Positions 2,597-52,233 of a stretch of 64,000 nucleotides of DNA are shown here, in pieces (position 1 is the stretch's first letter; each line of letters starts with the position of its first letter). The notes under the pieces are model-generated. The model worked only from the letters and a program-made list of their open reading frames with translations, did no database searches and was not told the origin of the DNA. The translations under genes were made by a program, and so were the position numbers. Origin of the DNA: Bacilli bacterium (lineage in GTDB: Bacteria; Bacillota_I; Bacilli_A; ML615J-28; CAG-313); NCBI GenBank assembly GCA_017501465.1, contig JAFVWY010000009.1, positions 115,092 to 179,091 of the forward strand, given 5' to 3'.

Positions 2597-3157
2597 ATGT
2601 TATTAGATTTATTCATCACTTTCTTTAAACTAGGACTATTTACTTTTGGTGGTGGATATGCAATGATATCTAATATTAAAGAAATAATCGTAGAAAAGAA
2701 ACAATGGATAACTGAAGATGAACTAATAGAAATGATTACAATAGCTGAGTCTACTCCAGGGCCAATTGCTATTAATATGGCAACTTATGTTGGTTATCAT
2801 AAAGCCAAAATCCTAGGCAGTATTCTATCAACTTTAGGTGTAGTTTTACCATCATTTATAATAATATTTATTATTTCTTTATTTCTAGAACAATTTATGA
2901 CAATTAAATATGTTCAATATGCTTTCTATGGAATTAATGCATGTGTATCATTTTTAATTTGTCGAACAGGTTTTAACTTAGTTAAAAAAATTGAAAAGAA
3001 AAAACTACCAATTATTACTTTTATAATTGTATTTACCCTTTTAATGTTATTTGAAATTTTATCAATTTCATTCTCATCAATATTATTTATTATTTTTGGA
3101 GGATTACTAGGTATTATATACTACGGTGTAATTACTGGAAAAGGAGGATCAAAATAA
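2597..3157 (+). CDS. chrA: chromate transporter ChrA family, N-terminal half-size paralog
   Basis: FGGGYAMI, ESTPGPIAINMATYVG motifs. Paired with the adjacent half-size paralog. Confidence 0.75.
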   Translation: MLLDLFITFFKLGLFTFGGGYAMISNIKEIIVEKKQWITEDELIEMITIAESTPGPIAINMATYVGYHKAKILGSILSTLGVVLPSFIIIFIISLFLEQFMTIKYVQYAFYGINACVSFLICRTGFNLVKKIEKKKLPIITFIIVFTLLMLFEILSISFSSILFIIFGGLLGIIYYGVITGKGGSK

Positions 3158-3729
3158 TGATTTATTTAGAATTATTTTTTGAATTCTTTAAAATTGGTCT
3201 ATTCACATTTGGTGGTGGATTTGCAATGATACCTTTAGTAAAAGATTTAGTAGTAACAAAAGGTTGGCTTGGTGTTGAAGAATTTACTAACCTTATTGGT
3301 GTATGTGAATCTACGCCAGGTCCAATTGCTATTAATATGGCTACATATGTTGGTTCAATACAAGCAGGATTTTTTGGTAGTGTTTGTGCAACTATTGGTG
3401 TTGTTTTACCATCAGTTATTATAATAATTTTAATTGCTGCAATTTTGAAAAACCTAACTACAAATATTTATTTTAGATCATTTATAAAAGGGGTTAAACC
3501 AATTATTTCAGCTCTTATTTTATCAACAGGTCTAATTTTACTTGCAAAATGTTTTGGCTATGAAAATATACATACTATATCATTTAAAATTGTGCCAATA
3601 ATAGTATTTGCAATTATTGCTTTAGTATATTTTTTAAGCACAAAAGTTTTAAAGAAGAAAGTGTCTTCAATTCAATTAATTATTTTATCAGCAATCTTAG
3701 GTATTGGTATATCTTTAATAATGGAGTAA
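3157..3729 (+). CDS. chrA: chromate transporter ChrA family, second half-size paralog
   Basis: FGGGFAMIPL, CESTPGPIAINMATYVG motifs. Its start is coupled to the stop of the upstream half (ATAATG). Confidence 0.75.
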   Translation: MIYLELFFEFFKIGLFTFGGGFAMIPLVKDLVVTKGWLGVEEFTNLIGVCESTPGPIAINMATYVGSIQAGFFGSVCATIGVVLPSVIIIILIAAILKNLTTNIYFRSFIKGVKPIISALILSTGLILLAKCFGYENIHTISFKIVPIIVFAIIALVYFLSTKVLKKKVSSIQLIILSAILGIGISLIME

Positions 3730-4627: not shown

Positions 4628-5824
4628 ATGAATTTTTTAAAAAAAATATATTGTCGTACATTTCAATTTTGTTTTAAGATAGCATACCCTTTTTTACCAT
4701 ATAAAGAACCCGTGATATTAAATAGTTTAAAAGAACTTTGTTTAAATATCAAAGAACACAACTATCAAAATGTCTTATTAATTACTGATAAAGGTATTAG
4801 ATGCCATGGTATTACCAAACCCTTAGAAGAAGAATTAAAAAACAATGATATTAATTGTATTGTCTTTGATGAAACGGTTGCTAATCCAACTACTTTGAAT
4901 GTAAGTACTGCGAAAGATTTATACATAAAAAATCAATGTCAATGTTTAATTGCTTTTGGTGGTGGATCTGCAATGGATTGTACAAAGGCTGTTGGGGCTT
5001 TAATTGCAAGACCAAATAAAAGTTTAGATAAACTTAAAGGGTTATTAAAGATTAGAAAGAAAACTCCGTTAATTTATGCTATACCTACTACTGCTGGTAC
5101 TGGTAGCGAGGTTACAATTGCTAGTGTTATAACTAATGAAGTAACACATCATAAATATACTTTAATGGATTTTAATTTAATTCCTAGTTGTGCAGTACTT
5201 GATCCTAGCGTTACTTACAGTTTGCCAAAACACTTAACTGCAACAACTGGTATGGATGCTTTAACTCATGCAATTGAAGCATATATTGGTAAGAGTAATA
5301 CTAAATACACAAGAAAAGTAGCGATTGATGCTATTAGATTAATCTTGGATAATATTGAAGTAGCTTATAATGAACCGAATAATTATGAAGCTAGAAAAAA
5401 CATGTTATATGCATCATATTTAGCAGGCATTGCTTTTACTAGATCTTATGTTGGTTATGTTCATGCCATAGCTCATTCCTTAGGGGGACAATATAATTTA
5501 CCACATGGACTTTTAAATGCAATAATTCTACCTAAAGTATTAAAAGTATATGATAAAAGTATTTATAAACAAATTCATAAATTATGTGTAATGTTAAATA
5601 TATCTAAGAAAAATGATTTAAAGCATGACAGTTTTAATAAGTTTATTAATAAAATTATACAATTAAATCATAACTTAGGTATTAAAGATCATATAGAAGA
5701 AATAAATACTAACGATATTTTGTTAATGGCAACTCATGCAGATAAAGAAGCTAATCCATTATATCCAGTGCCTAAACTGATGGATAAAAAGGAACTCATG
5801 AAAATATATCGAATATTAAAATAA
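4628..5824 (+). CDS. iron-containing alcohol dehydrogenase
   Basis: GGGSAMDCTKAV and GMDALTHAIEAY Fe-ADH signatures. A TTGACT-17-TATAAT promoter lies upstream. Confidence 0.8.
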   Translation: MNFLKKIYCRTFQFCFKIAYPFLPYKEPVILNSLKELCLNIKEHNYQNVLLITDKGIRCHGITKPLEEELKNNDINCIVFDETVANPTTLNVSTAKDLYIKNQCQCLIAFGGGSAMDCTKAVGALIARPNKSLDKLKGLLKIRKKTPLIYAIPTTAGTGSEVTIASVITNEVTHHKYTLMDFNLIPSCAVLDPSVTYSLPKHLTATTGMDALTHAIEAYIGKSNTKYTRKVAIDAIRLILDNIEVAYNEPNNYEARKNMLYASYLAGIAFTRSYVGYVHAIAHSLGGQYNLPHGLLNAIILPKVLKVYDKSIYKQIHKLCVMLNISKKNDLKHDSFNKFINKIIQLNHNLGIKDHIEEINTNDILLMATHADKEANPLYPVPKLMDKKELMKIYRILK

Positions 5825-5856: not shown

Positions 5857-6462
5857 TCTTATTAAGATGATAAAAAATATAAAAGCCATTACTTGAAGAG
5901 GAATACAAACGATATAGATTAAATAAATTTTATTAACTACATTTAATAAAGATAAATGAATTGATAATGCACAAGTCCATAATAAAACAGATGTAGTTGC
6001 AAATCTTGTATATTTGTTCCCCCACATACTAGCATATACTAAAAGTACAATGCTAGATACTGGCAAAGCATATATAAATGATAACCAAATTTTTAAATTT
6101 GGATGATTATCTTTTAAGATGCCAAGGATTAAGCAAACAATAGTTGCCACAAGCCAAACAATGCCTAGCGATAAACTAACAATAGAAAAGACTGTTCTTT
6201 TGCTTTTTCCTTTCTCCATTTTTTTAGGAATAAAATTAGTATCTTCATTTAGTAGTTGATCTACAGTAATTCCAAATAAATCTGCCATTTGTTTTAAAGT
6301 TATAACATCTGGTATTGATTCAGCTCTTTCCCACTTAGATAATGTCTTATCTGAGTAACTTAATTTATCAGCAAGTTCTAATTGTGTTAGTCCTAATTCT
6401 TTGCGATATTTAATTATATTTTTTGAAATTGTTTCTTTTAATTCTTCGTAATTGTTTTCCAT
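5845..6462 (-). CDS. membrane-anchored XRE-family HTH transcriptional regulator
   Basis: N-terminal LGLTQLELADKLSYSDKTLSKWERAESIP helix-turn-helix, followed by about four TM helices. Confidence 0.7.
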   Translation of the reverse strand: MENNYEELKETISKNIIKYRKELGLTQLELADKLSYSDKTLSKWERAESIPDVITLKQMADLFGITVDQLLNEDTNFIPKKMEKGKSKRTVFSIVSLSLGIVWLVATIVCLILGILKDNHPNLKIWLSFIYALPVSSIVLLVYASMWGNKYTRFATTSVLLWTCALSIHLSLLNVVNKIYLIYIVCIPLQVMAFIFFIILIRRKK

Positions 6463-6668
6463 ACATTATAATTATAACACAAAAATGGTTAAAATTGGTT
6501 AAATTTGACTATTTTTTTATAACTCTCTAAAAAGGAGAGTTCTATTCTACCAAAACAAGAAAAGAGAGTCTCTAATTAGGATAGTTACTTTAATAACATT
6601 CTATTGTATTTTCAAATTAATATATGTATAATTACTTGAAATTGATATTTTGAAAGGATGTATTAAAT

Positions 6669-37467: not shown

Positions 37468-38352
37468 TTATTTACCTAGTCTTTTATTTACATTATAAAA
37501 ATAATTAATATCATCTATATTATCATATATATTAATTGAATGATCAACATACTCTAAATATTCTAAAATGTTAATATTTTTTGTTTTGACAATAAGTTTA
37601 TCTTTATCTTCAATTATTTTTTTGAAAACTTTAATTTTATTAGTATTAAAGTAAATCTCTTCAAAATCCAAATAATTTATATCCCCATCATAATTATTAA
37701 TTAAAATAATACCTTTATTAATATCTAAATTTAATAAATACTCATTAATACTAATTGAATCTATAGAAATGATTGAATCGGTTGTATTTTCTAAAGAAGA
37801 TACTTTATATGTCTTATCAATTATTTTTTTATCAAATAATTCATTAGTAATTTTTAAATATTCATCGAAGTTTTTTAAGTTATTAATTTTATTTGTGTTA
37901 TTAAAAGGTTTATTTGTTACAATAAAACGTGATGCATAAATAGTATCATGAGGTGGGATTTTCGAAAAGTGGGCGTATTTTGGTAAATAGTAATAATCAT
38001 AAATATAACGATATAATTCTTCTTCTGTTATATTTTCTTTAGCAACACTTAATAAATAATCAATAAAATCATCATTTAAATAAGCTTTTAATTTTTTTAA
38101 ATATGAACGTTCTTGTTTTTCTTTTCTTGTTAGTTTAACTGGATAATATCTTCTTTTTGCGAATGCATTACATCTTAAGATTCTAAAACCCACTAATATA
38201 GTTGCATAAAAGAAATTAAACTTTTTATAAGTTTCTAAGGCATAGTCAGAACAAGTTGGGTAAAATTTGCAATGTCCTACACCTATTAAAGATTTATTTT
38301 TTTGATATGATTTTATTAATTTAACTGCAAACTTATTTTTACATTTATGCAT
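37468..38352 (-). CDS. yidD: YidD (membrane protein insertion efficiency factor) domain fused to ~220-aa C-terminal extension
   Basis: GHCKFYPTCSDYALETYKKFNFFYATILVGFRILRCNAF matches the YidD hallmark. Followed by an Asn/Ile/Asp-rich domain of unknown function. Start placed at the ATG after GGTGA. The track start is TTG with no RBS. Confidence 0.55.
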   Translation of the reverse strand: MHKCKNKFAVKLIKSYQKNKSLIGVGHCKFYPTCSDYALETYKKFNFFYATILVGFRILRCNAFAKRRYYPVKLTRKEKQERSYLKKLKAYLNDDFIDYLLSVAKENITEEELYRYIYDYYYLPKYAHFSKIPPHDTIYASRFIVTNKPFNNTNKINNLKNFDEYLKITNELFDKKIIDKTYKVSSLENTTDSIISIDSISINEYLLNLDINKGIILINNYDGDINYLDFEEIYFNTNKIKVFKKIIEDKDKLIVKTKNINILEYLEYVDHSINIYDNIDDINYFYNVNKRLGK

Positions 38353-38421
38353 AACATCACCATTTTTAATTATCTCAAAAAAGATAGTATAAATCAAGAA
38401 TTTAAGTTAAAAATATTACTG

Positions 38422-48717: not shown

Positions 48718-49078
48718 GGGCTAGTATTGGTTTCGACGGGATGTTAGAAGGTTGATAAGCATACCGTGGTCATGCACGTTAAAACATCTAGGTTTAAAAT
48801 AACCGGAAATCAAAATTTAGCTTTCTGCTAGGCTTAAATAGCAGATCCTAATAATTAGGGTAACTCCTTTGTGTCTTGCCTATGTGATACAAAAGGATTC
48901 AGAGAATAGGCTATGATGATCATATTAGCTTCGGTATAGGATTCGAGATTTAGAGCTGGTAGTAATTATGTTTTGTTTATTTTCATAATTACTATGAGAC
49001 CAAATTAATAAACTAAGTATGTAGAAAATTGATTAGATAATGTTTCGGACGCGGTTTCGACTACCGCCTAGTCCACCA
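48718..49078 (+). ncRNA. ssrA: transfer-messenger RNA (tmRNA, ssrA)
   Basis: 5' GGGCUAG pairs with 3' CUAGUCC, then discriminator A plus encoded CCA. GGUUUCGACGGG D-analog. T-arm GCGGUUUCGACUACCGC with UUCGACU loop. 361 nt. Internal tag ORF ends with UAG. Another frame ends with UAA UAA. Confidence 0.85.
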
Positions 49079-49176
49079 TTAGAATACACGCCACTTTGTT
49101 GAAAAATGAAGTGGTTTTTTTATTTTATAGAAATTTGGTTTTTGTATTGACAATGTAGTGACATTTTGGTATAATG
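49047..49176 (+). repeat. att-like module copy A: tmRNA 3' end, terminator hairpin, TTGACA-17-TATAAT promoter
   Basis: Core tagtccaccattagaatacacgccactttgttgaaaaatgaagtg (49070..49114) recurs at 52146..52190 with 3 mismatches. A more degenerate copy lies at 50996..51044. All three are followed by a promoter. Confidence 0.75.
49089..49122 (+). terminator. intrinsic terminator downstream of tmRNA
   Basis: ccactt..aagtgg hairpin followed by ttttttt. Confidence 0.6.
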
Positions 49177-49198
49177 AAAGTGTTATGGAGGTATTTTT

Positions 49199-49831
49199 AT
49201 GAGTTATATACAAATTAGAATTGATGATGAATTAAAAGAAGAAGCTGTAAAATTGTTTAATGAATTAGGTTTAGATTTATCTACAGCTATTCGTCTTTTT
49301 CTAAAGAAAAGTATTGATGATAAAAAAATGCCCTTTAAATTAAAAGGCAAGGGACGTGACGATTCTAAAGATGTTAAATACCGATTAAGAGCAGATGTAA
49401 TGGTACCACCTAATACTAACCCGTTTGAAGTAATGGATGAATTTATCCGAGTTTGTAATGAGAATGAATGGTACTGTTTAGGTGGTGGTGTACAATATCC
49501 TAATAAAGTCTTGACACTTTCAAAACCGGATGATGACATATATTATCACGGTTCACCATTTAAAATTGAAACTTTAAAAGAAGGGTTTGATTTTACGCCA
49601 TTTAAAGAACTTGCAATTTCATTTGGAAGTAAGCCATCACATATATCTATTAATGAGGGGAAAGTTAGCCATGATGGGATTAAATATCCTGTATATTTAT
49701 ATCAAATTGATGAAGACATAAAACTTGAAAAAGATTTTATTAATCATCCAAATTCAGCATTTGATAAAGGAATGGAATTCCGTTCTAAACGTGATTTAAA
49801 ATTAAAGTTGATAGATGTTATTAATGAGTAG
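49199..49831 (+). CDS. RelB/DinJ-type ribbon-helix-helix antitoxin-like domain fused to ~160-aa domain of unknown function
   Basis: N-terminal MSYIQIRIDDELKEEAVKLFNELGLDLSTAIRLFLKKSI matches the DinJ/RelB antitoxin family. The C-terminal domain has no recognised motif. Promoter 49147..49175 upstream. Confidence 0.55.
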   Translation: MSYIQIRIDDELKEEAVKLFNELGLDLSTAIRLFLKKSIDDKKMPFKLKGKGRDDSKDVKYRLRADVMVPPNTNPFEVMDEFIRVCNENEWYCLGGGVQYPNKVLTLSKPDDDIYYHGSPFKIETLKEGFDFTPFKELAISFGSKPSHISINEGKVSHDGIKYPVYLYQIDEDIKLEKDFINHPNSAFDKGMEFRSKRDLKLKLIDVINE

Positions 49832-49840
49832 GTGAATATT

Positions 49841-50839
49841 ATGGAAAAACAATATGGTCAAATCATTATATATAAGACACCTGATGGCAACACAAAATTA
49901 GAAGTTAAATTTTATGAAGATACTGTTTGGTTATCACAAGAACAACTTGTAGAACTTTACGGGTCTAGTAAATCCAATATTAGTGAACATATTAAACACA
50001 TATTTGAAGAAGGTGAACTAGATGAAAATTCAACTGTTCGGAATTTCCGAACAGTTGCTAGTAACGGAAGAACATATAATATAAAGTATTATAATCTAAA
50101 AATGATTATTGCTATTGGATATAGAGTTAGAAGTAATATCGGAACAAATTTTAGAAAATGGGCTACAACAACTTTAGAAGAATATATAGTTAAAGGATTT
50201 TCTATAAACGATGATTTACTAAAACGTGCAGGTGGCGGAAGATATTTTAAAGAACTACTTGCAAGAATAAGAGATATTAGATCTAGCGAAAGAGTGTTTT
50301 GGCGACAAGTTCTGGATATATTTGCAACATCAATAGATTATGATCCTAAACTTGAATTATCACAAGAGTTTTTTAAAACTGTACAAAACAAAATGCACTG
50401 GGCAACTCATGGTCATACTGCTGCTGAGATAATAGTAGAAAGAGCAAATGCTAAAAGAGATTTTATGGGTTTGACTTCATTTGATGGGGATTACCCAACA
50501 AAAGAAGATGCTGAAATTGCTAAAAACTATTTATCAAAAGATGAACTTGATACACTAAATAGAATTGTTTCATTATATTTAGATTTTGATGAACTTATGG
50601 CAAAAGAAGAAAAGCCAATGACGATGAAGGATTGGATAAAACAGCTTGATTATTTTCTAAAAATGAGTAGAAAAGATATATTGACTGGAAGTGGAACTAT
50701 ATCACATATTAAAGCATTAGAACATGCTAGAAAAGAATATAATGATTTTAGTAAGAGAATTTTAACAAATCCAACTGAAAATGAAAAATTATATTTTGAT
50801 AAATTACAACAGTTAATGTTAATAGATAAAAAAGAATAG
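49841..50839 (+). CDS. RhuM-family (virulence protein RhuM-like) protein
   Basis: IIIYKTPDGNTKLEVKFYEDTVWLSQEQLVELYG and KYYNLKMIIAIGYRVRSNIGTNFRKWATTTLEEYIVKGF match the RhuM family N-terminal and central core. AGGTGA RBS before ATG 49841. Starts 10 nt after the upstream stop. Confidence 0.7.
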   Translation: MEKQYGQIIIYKTPDGNTKLEVKFYEDTVWLSQEQLVELYGSSKSNISEHIKHIFEEGELDENSTVRNFRTVASNGRTYNIKYYNLKMIIAIGYRVRSNIGTNFRKWATTTLEEYIVKGFSINDDLLKRAGGGRYFKELLARIRDIRSSERVFWRQVLDIFATSIDYDPKLELSQEFFKTVQNKMHWATHGHTAAEIIVERANAKRDFMGLTSFDGDYPTKEDAEIAKNYLSKDELDTLNRIVSLYLDFDELMAKEEKPMTMKDWIKQLDYFLKMSRKDILTGSGTISHIKALEHARKEYNDFSKRILTNPTENEKLYFDKLQQLMLIDKKE

Positions 50840-50917
50840 TTTTCAGGTTTTTAAATATTTATGCTAATCTCATCAGAGTTTTTGCATTATGGTATAGCTT
50901 TCCGTTTCAATAATTTA

Positions 50918-50962
50918 AATTCCCGGTTTTTACTTAGATGCCGGGAATTATTTGTAATTTTA
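50918..50962 (+). terminator. intrinsic terminator after the RhuM gene
   Basis: aattcccgg / ccgggaatt 9-bp inverted repeat with 14-nt loop, followed by atttgtaatttt. Confidence 0.55.
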
Positions 50963-50992
50963 ATAAAAATAACACGCATACAGTCAGAAACT

Positions 50993-51099
50993 CCCCTGGT
51001 CCACTAAAAATAATTTCGTCTGGTTTGTTGAAATAACAATCCAGTTGTTAATTTAATTTTGATCTTGATTTTGCAAACAAAATTCTTATATGCTATAAT
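50993..51099 (+). repeat. att-like module copy C (degenerate): tmRNA-3'-end-like core, ctgg..ccag hairpin, TTGCAA-17-TGcTATAAT promoter
   Basis: cctggtccactaaaaataatttcgtctggtttgttgaaataacaatccag aligns to copy A (cctagtccaccattagaatacacgccactttgttgaaaaatgaagtgg). Promoter at 51071..51099. Confidence 0.55.
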
Positions 51100-51132
51100 T
51101 TCAATGAAATGATATTCATAGGAGGTAAAATT

Positions 51133-51999
51133 ATGAAAATAATACATATGATTGATGATTACAAAATATTATGTAAAGATATAGAATCTATGGGTAAATA
51201 TGAAGCATATAAAGCATATATAAAAAAATATCCTTATTTCTTTGAAGGTGTATTAAAATATTTATATTGCCAACCAATAGAGAATTTAAAAGAAATGATT
51301 GAGAATGTTAATTTTCATTTATTATTAAAAACAGCAGAAGAAAATTATGAAACTGGTAAAGTGGATTATATTATTGAGTTTATGAATAAATTTATCAAAA
51401 AAATGAATGTTGATTTTGATTTTTCATTTCTTATAGGTATAGAAATGGGGAATATTGGAGGATGTGCAACTCCGTGTGATACAGGGGACCCTCATTTGTA
51501 TATAGGAATAGATAAACCGTTAGATAAACAAAAGATTGGTATGCTTATTTCGCATGAACTATATCATATGTTAAGGGCATATATGACTCAAGGGAGTACA
51601 GCGGATACGGTGTTTTCTAGAATGGTAGAAGAAGGATTAGCATCATATTCATCATTATGGGCTCATGATATGGAATGGAACACGGTTAATATTGCAAAGA
51701 CATTGGGCGTATCTGAAAAACAAGCAAATAATTTATTAAATAATACAAATGCCCTATTAGAAAGAATTGTTAATGATGGTGAAAAACCGATCTCAGTAGA
51801 GACAATGACTGAATATTTTATTGCTGATATGAATGATGTGGAGTTTCCAGTTATAGGATACTATGTTGGATTATATCTTGCACATTTATCTATAGAGCAA
51901 GGGATAGATTTTGAAAGTTTTATTTCAATGTCACAAAATGATATAATTGACATGTGGTTAAAACAAATACTGACACTTAAATGTATAAAAAATAATTAA
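51133..51999 (+). CDS. putative zinc metallopeptidase (HExxH; DUF2268-like)
   Basis: SHELYHML HExxH motif in a helical context. GGAGG RBS before ATG 51133. Own promoter embedded in repeat copy C. Confidence 0.5.
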   Translation: MKIIHMIDDYKILCKDIESMGKYEAYKAYIKKYPYFFEGVLKYLYCQPIENLKEMIENVNFHLLLKTAEENYETGKVDYIIEFMNKFIKKMNVDFDFSFLIGIEMGNIGGCATPCDTGDPHLYIGIDKPLDKQKIGMLISHELYHMLRAYMTQGSTADTVFSRMVEEGLASYSSLWAHDMEWNTVNIAKTLGVSEKQANNLLNNTNALLERIVNDGEKPISVETMTEYFIADMNDVEFPVIGYYVGLYLAHLSIEQGIDFESFISMSQNDIIDMWLKQILTLKCIKNN

Positions 52000-52118
52000 A
52001 TATTAAACGTTTAAGATTTCGTACAAAAACGAGAATTTTTTGCACTATTGATATTTCAAGGGTATAAATTAATGAAAAACGTTAAAAACCATATAAAAGG
52101 ATAAGTTATTATCAAATT

Positions 52119-52233
52119 GGACGCGGGTGGAAACAAGTAGCCACCTAGTCCACCATTAGAACACACGGCACTTTGTTGAAAAATAAAGTGTCTTTTTATA
52201 TTTGTAGTCAATATGAATTTTATATGTTATAAT
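52119..52233 (+). repeat. att-like module copy B: displaced tmRNA 3'-end fragment, hairpin, promoter
   Basis: ggacgcgg...tagtccaccattagaacacacggcactttgttgaaaaataaagtg, then T-run and TAGTCA-17-TGtTATAAT promoter. It has no 5' tRNA-like half and its T-arm is degenerate. Confidence 0.75.

Follow-up and report, generated by a model that had tools for sequence, protein, structure and literature searches.

The DNA analysed here, referred to as the window, is a 64,000-nt stretch of an uncultured "Bacilli bacterium" metagenome-assembled genome (MAG; assembly GCA_017501465.1, contig JAFVWY010000009.1, positions 115,092 to 179,091 of the forward strand), and all coordinates without a contig label refer to it. 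At 51133-51999 it carries a gene for a 288-aa protein with a zinc-peptidase motif, located downstream of the transfer-messenger RNA (tmRNA) gene ssrA and flanked on both sides by direct repeats of the 3' end of that gene. A preliminary description, made from the sequence alone, had presented this open reading frame (ORF) as cargo of an islet bounded by attachment-site (att)-like repeats, and had proposed that its product controls a ribbon-helix-helix (RHH) DNA-binding protein encoded nearby. The analysis reported below indicates that the gene probably encodes a soluble, cytoplasmic DUF2268/YjaZ-like zinc metallopeptidase and that it resides on a self-contained, single-gene mobile cassette in a tandem array at ssrA. 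The features of the locus are as follows.

48718-49078, + strand: tmRNA gene ssrA, anchor of the cassette array (ARAGORN; Rfam RF00023, 144.6 bits, full length)
49067-49078, + strand: repeat core copy A, the last 12 nt of the tmRNA, CCTAGTCCACCA (core scan)
49199-50839, + strand: RelB-RhuM cassette, a separate upstream unit, with the RHH gene at 49199-49831 and RhuM at 49832-50839
50918-50949, + strand: terminator-like hairpin closing the RhuM cassette (fold -15.6 kcal/mol, z -3.35), then a U-rich tract
50995-51006, + strand: core copy C, CCTGGTCCACTA, 2 substitutions, left cassette boundary (core scan)
51020-51044, + strand: weak hairpin just 3' of core C, degenerate and tmRNA-terminator-like, left arm of the cassette (-8.6 kcal/mol)
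51071-51099, + strand: predicted sigma-70-type promoter TTGCAA-17-TGcTATAAT with extended -10 TG (consensus scan, 10/12 matches plus TG)
51120-51125, + strand: ribosome-binding site AGGAGG, 7 nt 5' of the ATG (direct sequence reading)
51133-51999, + strand: peptidase gene, predicted 288-aa DUF2268/DUF5700-family gluzincin metallopeptidase
52017-52041, + strand: weak hairpin and T-run 3' of the stop codon, possible terminator (inner 6-bp stem then UUUUUU, fold of 51995-52060)
52119-52155, + strand: right end of the cassette, pseudo-T-arm GGACGCGGGTGGAAACAAGTAGCCA plus core B CCTAGTCCACCA (repeat and junction alignments)
52144-52155, + strand: core copy B, exact CCTAGTCCACCA, in a 67-nt repeat sharing 85% identity with the end of the tmRNA and its terminator (copy A)
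52167-52192, + strand: copy of the tmRNA-type intrinsic terminator 3' of core B, part of the next unit (TMEM164 flank) (terminator scan; -12.8 kcal/mol, z -5.8)

The exact 288-aa product is deposited at NCBI as MBR2891326.1 with the annotation "hypothetical protein". An alternative in-frame ATG at 51109 would give 296 aa, but this longer form is unlikely and the 288-aa form is the likely product, because 25 of 27 aligned sequences start at MK(I/T)(I/V)HM and because the predicted -10 box at 51094-51099 would leave no leader ahead of position 51109. The protein contains one HExxH only, HELYH at residue 141, and is predicted to lack a signal peptide and membrane segments, and thus to be cytoplasmic and soluble, because its highest 19-residue Kyte-Doolittle mean is 1.25. 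On these basic points (a 288-aa ORF with a single HELYH and no signal peptide, lying between repeat copies C and B, with an RHH gene ending about 1.3 kb upstream), the preliminary description agrees with what we find.

Profile searches placed the protein in the DUF2268/DUF5700 family, with scores above the Pfam gathering cut-offs for both DUF5700 (PF18958; 31.1 bits against a cut-off of 25) and DUF2268 (PF10026; 25.1 bits against 23.6). DUF2268 was also matched by 48 of 52 full-length wider relatives (best E 4.7e-17), and one cluster member carries the JGI label "YjaZ". A word-indexed search returned 58 close homologues, all metagenome- or MAG-derived, and a profile run exhaustively against 1.84 billion cluster representatives (50% clustering) yielded just 123 relatives at E<=0.001, nearly all full-length members of which measure 270-295 aa. 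We regard the protein as a probable new, divergent, YjaZ-like member of this family and a gluzincin-type zinc peptidase, a judgement made jointly with that of a stand-alone mobile cassette.

The residues expected of such an enzyme are conserved. In an alignment of 27 close homologues H141, E142, H145, R163, E166, E167 and G168 are invariant, and in a 52-sequence alignment extending to 15% identity H141, H145, E167, G168, Y243 and G246 are invariant and E142 is conserved in at least 90% of sequences. Conservation in 52 relatives indicates that HELYH is a real motif and excludes a chance match. A third zinc ligand, which the preliminary description had left to be looked for together with a DUF2268 assignment, is predicted to be the invariant E167 of an EEGLA motif (EEGLASY), 21 residues past H145 and in the next helix; we take this motif to resemble the NEGFA motif of M1 enzymes. 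In the predicted active site, zinc would be held by H141, H145 and E167 with E142 as general base, a gluzincin arrangement, and the invariant Y243 is probably the transition-state tyrosine by analogy with M1 enzymes.

An alignment-based AlphaFold2 (AF2) model of the protein (pLDDT 89, pTM 0.87) comprises a helical N-terminal domain (residues ~1-95), a three-stranded sheet, the HExxH helix (132-152), the helix bearing the glutamate (160-177) and a helical C-terminal part, with the N-terminal helical domain of about 95 residues modelled as packing on the catalytic domain. In fold comparison the model matched full gluzincin catalytic domains, namely those of M36 (10.2), Lugdulysin (M30; 10.1), the M1 enzymes F3, PSA, ERAP1 and APN (9.6-9.9) and thermolysin (8.8), with collagenase, M61 and MATCAP lower, which is consistent with a thermolysin-like catalytic fold. 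Almost all strong structural neighbours were peptidases. A Foldseek search against viral structures gave nothing at E<=0.001, PHROGs returned only a meaningless 14-bit 'transposase' match, and no functional study of DUF2268, DUF5700 or YjaZ was found in the literature searched.

The preliminary description's view of the gene as cargo of a discrete, att-bounded islet was borne out by comparison with other contigs, in which the same 1.15-kb unit, about 95% identical, lies amid different neighbours. The cassette measures 1,149 bp from core to core and contains a single gene, in the order core, tmRNA-terminator-like hairpin, sigma-70 promoter, ribosome-binding site, ORF, weak terminator, pseudo-T-arm and core. 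Window positions 50992-52177 match contig L032 at 95.2% and positions 50946-52160 match contigs L033-L035 at 95.1%, the matches overrunning the cores by 0-50 nt. Upstream of the peptidase lies RhuM in the window, a cassette encoding a 327-aa Fic protein in L032 and one encoding a 285-aa Fic protein in L033-L035; downstream lie TMEM164, a beta-lactamase-fold gene and a GntR-ABC pair, respectively. In L001 a 95% match covers 51006-51994 only, so that the left part of the unit is shared, and beyond it are a lipoprotein gene, a membrane protein, an alpha/beta hydrolase, RhuM fragments, Fic and a helix-turn-helix (HTH) protein. Conversely, L010 follows the window at 98.9% identity from 45000 as far as 51007, where core C ends, and then continues into unrelated TrkH, TrkA and sensor kinase genes, so that the contig carries tmRNA-RelB-RhuM without the peptidase, with an intact core CCCCTAGTCCACCA at the junction. 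Homology thus breaks at core C from both directions, ending at 51007 in L010 and beginning at 51006 in L001. A further contig, L020, matches the window only from 49067 on and has a Fic gene followed by a core upstream of that point.

L010 (11176-16165) and L020 (1-943) both come from sample ERZ27256852 and present tmRNA-RelB-RhuM-core-TrkH/TrkA/two-component system and Fic-core-RelB-RhuM-core-peptidase, respectively; the two contigs stem either from separate strains or from a single genome in which a large insertion separates two copies of RelB-RhuM. The 64-kb window does not contain the TrkH segment.

Although core copy C differs from the tmRNA end at two positions, the orthologous junctions are better kept (perfect in L033-L035, one substitution in L032), and these better-preserved cores validate copy C as a boundary. 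At the right end, the pre-core DNA of the window is also found 3' of the peptidase gene in L032 and L033, whereas the post-core DNA differs. In an alignment of 13 junctions (A4), the roughly 25 nt preceding the core (pseudo-T-arm GACGYGGGT..ACAAGTARCC) track the upstream cassette, while the hairpin and promoter following the core track the downstream cassette; for the peptidase cassette, the pre-core is GGACGCGGGTGGAAACAAGTAGCCA and its own post-core is AAAAATAATTTCGTCTGG. Because the two sides of the core follow different cassettes, the crossover is placed within the core. Judged from this junction structure, the cassettes would move through site-specific recombination events at the core, catalysed by a recombinase encoded elsewhere.

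To place the identity of the cassette against that of its hosts, we used the only backbone genes that the window and L032 have in common: Peptidase_S58 and adh_short are 71.7% and 69.8% identical, compared with 95.2% for the cassette, a contrast of 95% against 70% that assumes these S58 and adh_short genes to be orthologues and that points to recent cassette exchange between different species. A more distant version of the unit is present in L061 (P0004), where an 80%-identical homologue forms the last unit of an array, preceded by cargo encoding a lipoprotein and two membrane proteins and bearing a variant core CCCTGGTCCACCA on its left; no core was found to its right. A scan of JGI metagenomes with the pre-core plus core pattern returned seven short contigs with true junctions and 13 chance matches, the latter including two viral matches, which were rejected as lying in 52% GC DNA. 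The seven junction contigs carry further single-gene cassettes of 1.13-1.18 kb, with Fic, lipoprotein and membrane protein cargo. Neither a clean empty site nor a circular junction was recovered; L010 lacks the peptidase, but its downstream flank, which is absent from the window, differs as well.

Several features indicate that the gene may be transcribed on its own. Two hairpins lie between the RhuM stop codon and the peptidase start, followed by the promoter-like site. The second hairpin (51020-51044) is conserved across all copies of the peptidase cassette, and a similar one stands 3' of the core in other cassettes. Promoter-like matches are abundant in the AT-rich DNA of the window (37 observed against 26 expected); the prediction at 51071-51099 gains weight because L061 keeps the architecture (TTGATA-17-TGcTATAAT) ahead of its 80%-identical homologue even though the upstream DNA there has diverged, and the promoter is also kept in L001, L032 and L033. 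The preliminary description had embedded this promoter in the att-like repeat. A promoter of the gene's own, insulated by two hairpins, is consistent with our data; its position is not, as the site lies about 25 nt 3' of the repeat's hairpin, in cassette-specific DNA outside the conserved core. The hairpin at 52017-52041 was not called in the terminator scan. With a GC content of 0.28 and a third-position GC content (GC3) of 0.19, the gene equals host values (the window as a whole is 27.9% GC), and a compositional anomaly of the islet was looked for without one being found. Among close cassette copies the ratio of nonsynonymous to synonymous substitution rates is 0.18-0.32, and the protein is therefore under purifying selection.

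The peptidase cassette belongs to a wider set of arrays, found in the window (49067-52155), in L032 (1-3700), L033 (2240-4700) and L061 (1-3400), and in L039, L041, L043, L047, L049, L053 and L055. Their units measure 1.13-1.93 kb, are all co-oriented with ssrA and contain one ORF each (two for RelB-RhuM), arranged as core, hairpin, promoter, ORF, pseudo-T-arm and core; the cargo comprises three Fic types, RelB-RhuM, the peptidase, lipoproteins and membrane proteins, and the cassette order differs between organisms. No integrase was seen in any sampled array. Of the five arrays that contain the peptidase, four have it as their final cassette, bordering non-cassette DNA (window 52155; L032 3675; L033 4693; L061 4342), with different downstream genes each time; this terminal position could reflect the oldest insertion, sampling bias or a role at the array end. 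The match between the gene and its host in GC content and GC3 suggests a cassette pool that circulates among similar low-GC Bacilli. We tentatively propose, at somewhat less than even confidence, that the peptidase is an interchangeable unit of an undescribed integron-like, tmRNA-anchored cassette system in uncultured low-GC gut Bacilli, in which a recombinase working in trans would exchange units of 1.1-1.9 kb, each equipped with a promoter, a pseudo-T-arm and a mimic of the tmRNA terminator, from one species to another at a 12-14-nt core derived from the tmRNA 3' end. A literature search found no description of such an ssrA cassette array. As a separate observation on the anchor gene, ARAGORN predicts the tmRNA tag peptide GNQNLAFC* (48805-48831), which ends in Cys and not in the usual Ala-Ala.

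Under the proposed arrangement, the protein would most likely act by itself in the cytosol as a gluzincin peptidase. Its gene would be transcribed from its own promoter, and the RhuM terminator together with the hairpin of the cassette would curb read-through from upstream. Whenever a cassette comes to lie next to ssrA, the DNA just past the core would have to terminate the tmRNA transcript, which may be why each cassette carries a terminator mimic at its left end, as suggested by the recurring design in the junction alignment. Since neither movement nor retention of the cassette depends on its neighbours, the enzyme would presumably act alone, on a substrate supplied by the host or an invader and not on the RHH protein of the neighbouring cassette. 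The company of Fic and RhuM hints at a role in conflict or defence.

Some observations weigh against the reading of the gene as a peptidase on a mobile cassette. Peptidase activity is predicted from motif and fold; the Pfam scores barely exceed their cut-offs, no NCBIfam profile matched, and a profile search of all PDB sequences gave no match at E<=10. The backbone comparison assumes orthology, annotated integrases are missing from the roughly 9 kb that flank the array on each side in the window strain, and the cassette may now be fixed in that strain, because core C carries two substitutions. In addition, Oscillospiraceae and other Clostridia have homologues of 55-67% identity at ordinary chromosomal sites outside any cassette, so that the family taken as a whole is not intrinsically mobile.

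The neighbourhoods of the more distant homologues (34-67% identity; L002-L009, L026, L028, L030) vary widely in content: MerR with radical SAM, GNATs and methyltransferases; two DUF1847 genes; VanZ and ThiF; DUF975, with an XRE gene at a distance of two genes on the opposite strand; DUF4037 with a hexapeptide transferase; and a penicillin-binding protein (PBP) with an aminotransferase. The homologue in an Anaerolineae MAG sits between Zn_peptidase_2, S41 and M3 peptidase genes. Across the 12 distant-homologue loci neither a conserved operon partner nor an adjacent repressor or HTH gene was found. The outcome that the preliminary description would have taken as contrary to its view, assignment to a housekeeping family with a conserved non-mobile context, did not emerge, as the context is conserved nowhere. 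A radical SAM/SPASM-like gene adjoins the peptidase homologue upstream, with a 7-nt gap, in L002 (5722-7563) and in L003, and downstream in L061 (3488-5257) and L062; a partnership was set aside as a weak lead only, the proteins of the two lineages sharing a generic CxxxCxxC region (37% over 62 aa). In L009 (6550-7408; MAG UMGS692) the homologue is split into ORFs of 127 and 108 aa with the middle missing and is likely a pseudogene, so the gene is likely dispensable in some hosts.

The regulatory switch suggested by the preliminary description is the least probable of the explanations considered. It holds that the peptidase is an ImmA/IrrE-type anti-repressor that cleaves the RelB-like RHH protein and thereby switches the RelB-RhuM module or the islet. 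HExxH proteases of the ImmA and IrrE kind, which cleave repressors, are known from mobile elements, and the RHH and peptidase genes are co-oriented, 1.3 kb apart and part of one tmRNA-linked variable region; in L033, too, a RelB cassette is present, 3.4 kb upstream of the peptidase. Yet the two genes belong to different cassettes, parted by a core and two hairpins, and the RelB-RhuM and peptidase cassettes assort independently, because L010 has RelB-RhuM without the peptidase and because the peptidase directly follows Fic cassettes in L032-L035. The upstream cassette, 1,928 bp from core to core, encodes an RHH protein in which a RelB/DinJ N-domain (residues 1-50; Pfam RelB 44.7 bits, TIGR02384 65.6 bits) is fused to a 150-aa extension, followed by a full-length RhuM (355 bits; 484 bits to the PADLOC candidate defence family PDC-S05). 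Nor did the expected association recur further afield: an RHH or RhuM gene is near the homologue at 0 of the 12 distant loci, and an XRE gene occurs only in L006, two genes off and on the other strand. The ImmA/IrrE assignment itself fared no better, Peptidase_M78 giving no match at E<=1 in Pfam and none in NCBIfam, with IrrE-like models at insignificant ranks only in the fold comparison.

A defence function is a less remote alternative, although still an improbable one: the protein might be a stand-alone defence or abortive-infection protease like Lit of the e14 prophage, one that would stay silent or do no harm until a protein or peptide of an invader serves as its trigger or as its substrate. 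Conflict-type genes on other cassettes (RhuM with its PDC-S05 match and several Fic/Doc proteins) and the features of a single gene with its own promoter exchanged between species are what defence cargo would show; against this, the peptidase has no PADLOC-DB v2 match at E<=0.1, tblastn searches of 50,697 phage and 72,556 plasmid records gave no homologue, the lipoproteins and membrane proteins encoded on other cassettes are not obviously of a defence type, and homologues elsewhere lie among GNAT, VanZ, PBP and peptidase genes and not in defence islands. We consider it highly improbable that the gene is instead an ordinary, vertically inherited, non-mobile peptide-turnover gene with no special role, caught between decayed remnants of tmRNA-targeting islands. 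Its host-like composition, the missing integrase, the degenerate core C, the peptidase-rich setting of the Anaerolineae homologue and the non-mobile contexts of most Clostridia homologues would all fit, but the cassette is 95% identical where shared backbone genes are about 70% identical, homology breaks at the cores or within a few tens of nt of them, the neighbours on both sides differ in L032 and L033-L035 (and at the left end in L001), and a family of 123 representatives among 1.84 billion is too rare for a housekeeping enzyme. There is, finally, a very slight chance that the protein is a gluzincin-fold non-protease, either an enzyme that hydrolyses some other kind of bond (LTA4H, for instance, doubles as an epoxide hydrolase) or a protein that binds in a zinc-dependent manner. 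The GxMEN exopeptidase motif is absent, conservation of the stretch preceding HExxH is confined to close relatives, and no assay of any family member was found in the literature searched; on the other side stand the full catalytic set of H, E, H, E and Y, invariant or nearly so across the family, and the peptidase identity of almost all strong structural neighbours. We thus retain the reading of a stand-alone zinc metallopeptidase on a mobile cassette as the probable one.

If the proposed cassette system exists, DUF2268 peptidases would belong, with Fic toxins, RhuM, lipoproteins and membrane proteins, to a pool of portable adaptive or conflict genes that stand alone, and the recurrent last position of the peptidase could reflect a role at the array end; if the array is active, it would offer bacteria a new way, besides integrons, to gather single accessory genes. 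For the family, the analysis provides a clear predicted gluzincin structural assignment with an H-E-H-E-Y catalytic set. Taken alone, the gene is one more divergent member of an uncharacterised family of predicted zinc proteases, and its direct impact is small; its portable version suggests that one gene, with no partner, is enough for the enzyme to function, which makes it a convenient entry to the family's substrate.

Further observations concern the neighbouring cassette and other parts of the DNA. The RelB-like gene abuts RhuM, and the two look like an antitoxin-toxin or regulator-effector pair on one cassette; decay has left 60 aa of the RhuM partner in L033. Downstream of the peptidase in L001, three diverged direct repeats (3037-3513, 5235-5711 and 6204-6657; 74-81%) each encode an N-terminal RhuM fragment of about 100 aa and are interspersed with Doc/Fic-like and HTH-membrane genes; no tmRNA-type cores were detectable at these repeats. 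In the window, a 163-aa ORF at 54550-55041 matches positions 18-86 of the 349-position oxaloacetate decarboxylase beta-subunit profile and is probably a gene fragment or pseudogene downstream of the array. On the minority strand, a 309-aa ORF (37471-38397, - strand) has a YidD domain at residues 22-87 only and no Pfam match in the rest; a typical YidD protein has about 80 aa, and the ORF is far longer by that measure.

With respect to known enzymes, the protein resembles the DUF2268/DUF5700 family of B. subtilis YjaZ type in its HExxH plus downstream Glu, its length (~260-290 aa in the family) and its predicted cytoplasmic location, and differs in that it is divergent, scores only marginally (25-31 bits), falls in a small subfamily and is here carried by a mobile cassette. 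It has no Pfam match to any of the gluzincin families M1/LTA4H, M4, M30, M36 and M61. Unlike M1 aminopeptidases, it lacks GxMEN, the region before HExxH reading E-M-G-N-I-G-G and not being conserved in the wider family; its His-to-Glu spacing is 21, compared with an HExxH-to-Glu spacing of 18 in M1, and with only 288 aa it is without the N-terminal saddle and C-terminal domains. It also has no propeptide or signal peptide, in contrast to the secreted M4, M30 and M36 enzymes. With ImmA/IrrE (M78, COG2856) it shares the general picture of a small HExxH protein that a mobile element encodes close to the gene of a DNA-binding protein, but it differs in the size of its domain and in its fold rank, its gene has no XRE-type repressor next to it, and the RHH gene lies on a cassette that assorts independently.

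At the level of genome organization, the closest likeness is with accretion-type elements. Streptococcal cis-mobilizable elements (CIMEs) and the staphylococcal cassette chromosome (SCC) and pseudo-SCC arrays at orfX are comparisons of this kind. The ssrA genomic islands (ssrA-GIs) of Dehalococcoides are serial insertions downstream of ssrA bounded by direct repeats of the tmRNA 3' end, and the work that reports them mentions the CIME concept (PMC3146451). The cassette array described here likewise consists of units bounded by direct repeats, some without an integrase of their own, with content that varies between strains; as in a CIME, direct repeats of the ssrA 3' end stand on both sides of the peptidase unit, which is found in different contexts with breakpoints at the repeats. 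It differs from the ssrA-GIs in that its units are only 1.1-1.9 kb long, contain one gene each (two for RelB-RhuM), appear to have their own promoter and are co-oriented with ssrA. Like integrons, the array combines single-ORF units parted by short recombination sites with varied cargo and places the same cassette in different arrays. Integron cassettes are usually promoterless, whereas each ssrA cassette carries a predicted promoter and a terminator-like hairpin of its own; no IntI, attI or attC-type imperfect palindrome was identified in the arrays, and the sites mimic the 3' end of the tmRNA.

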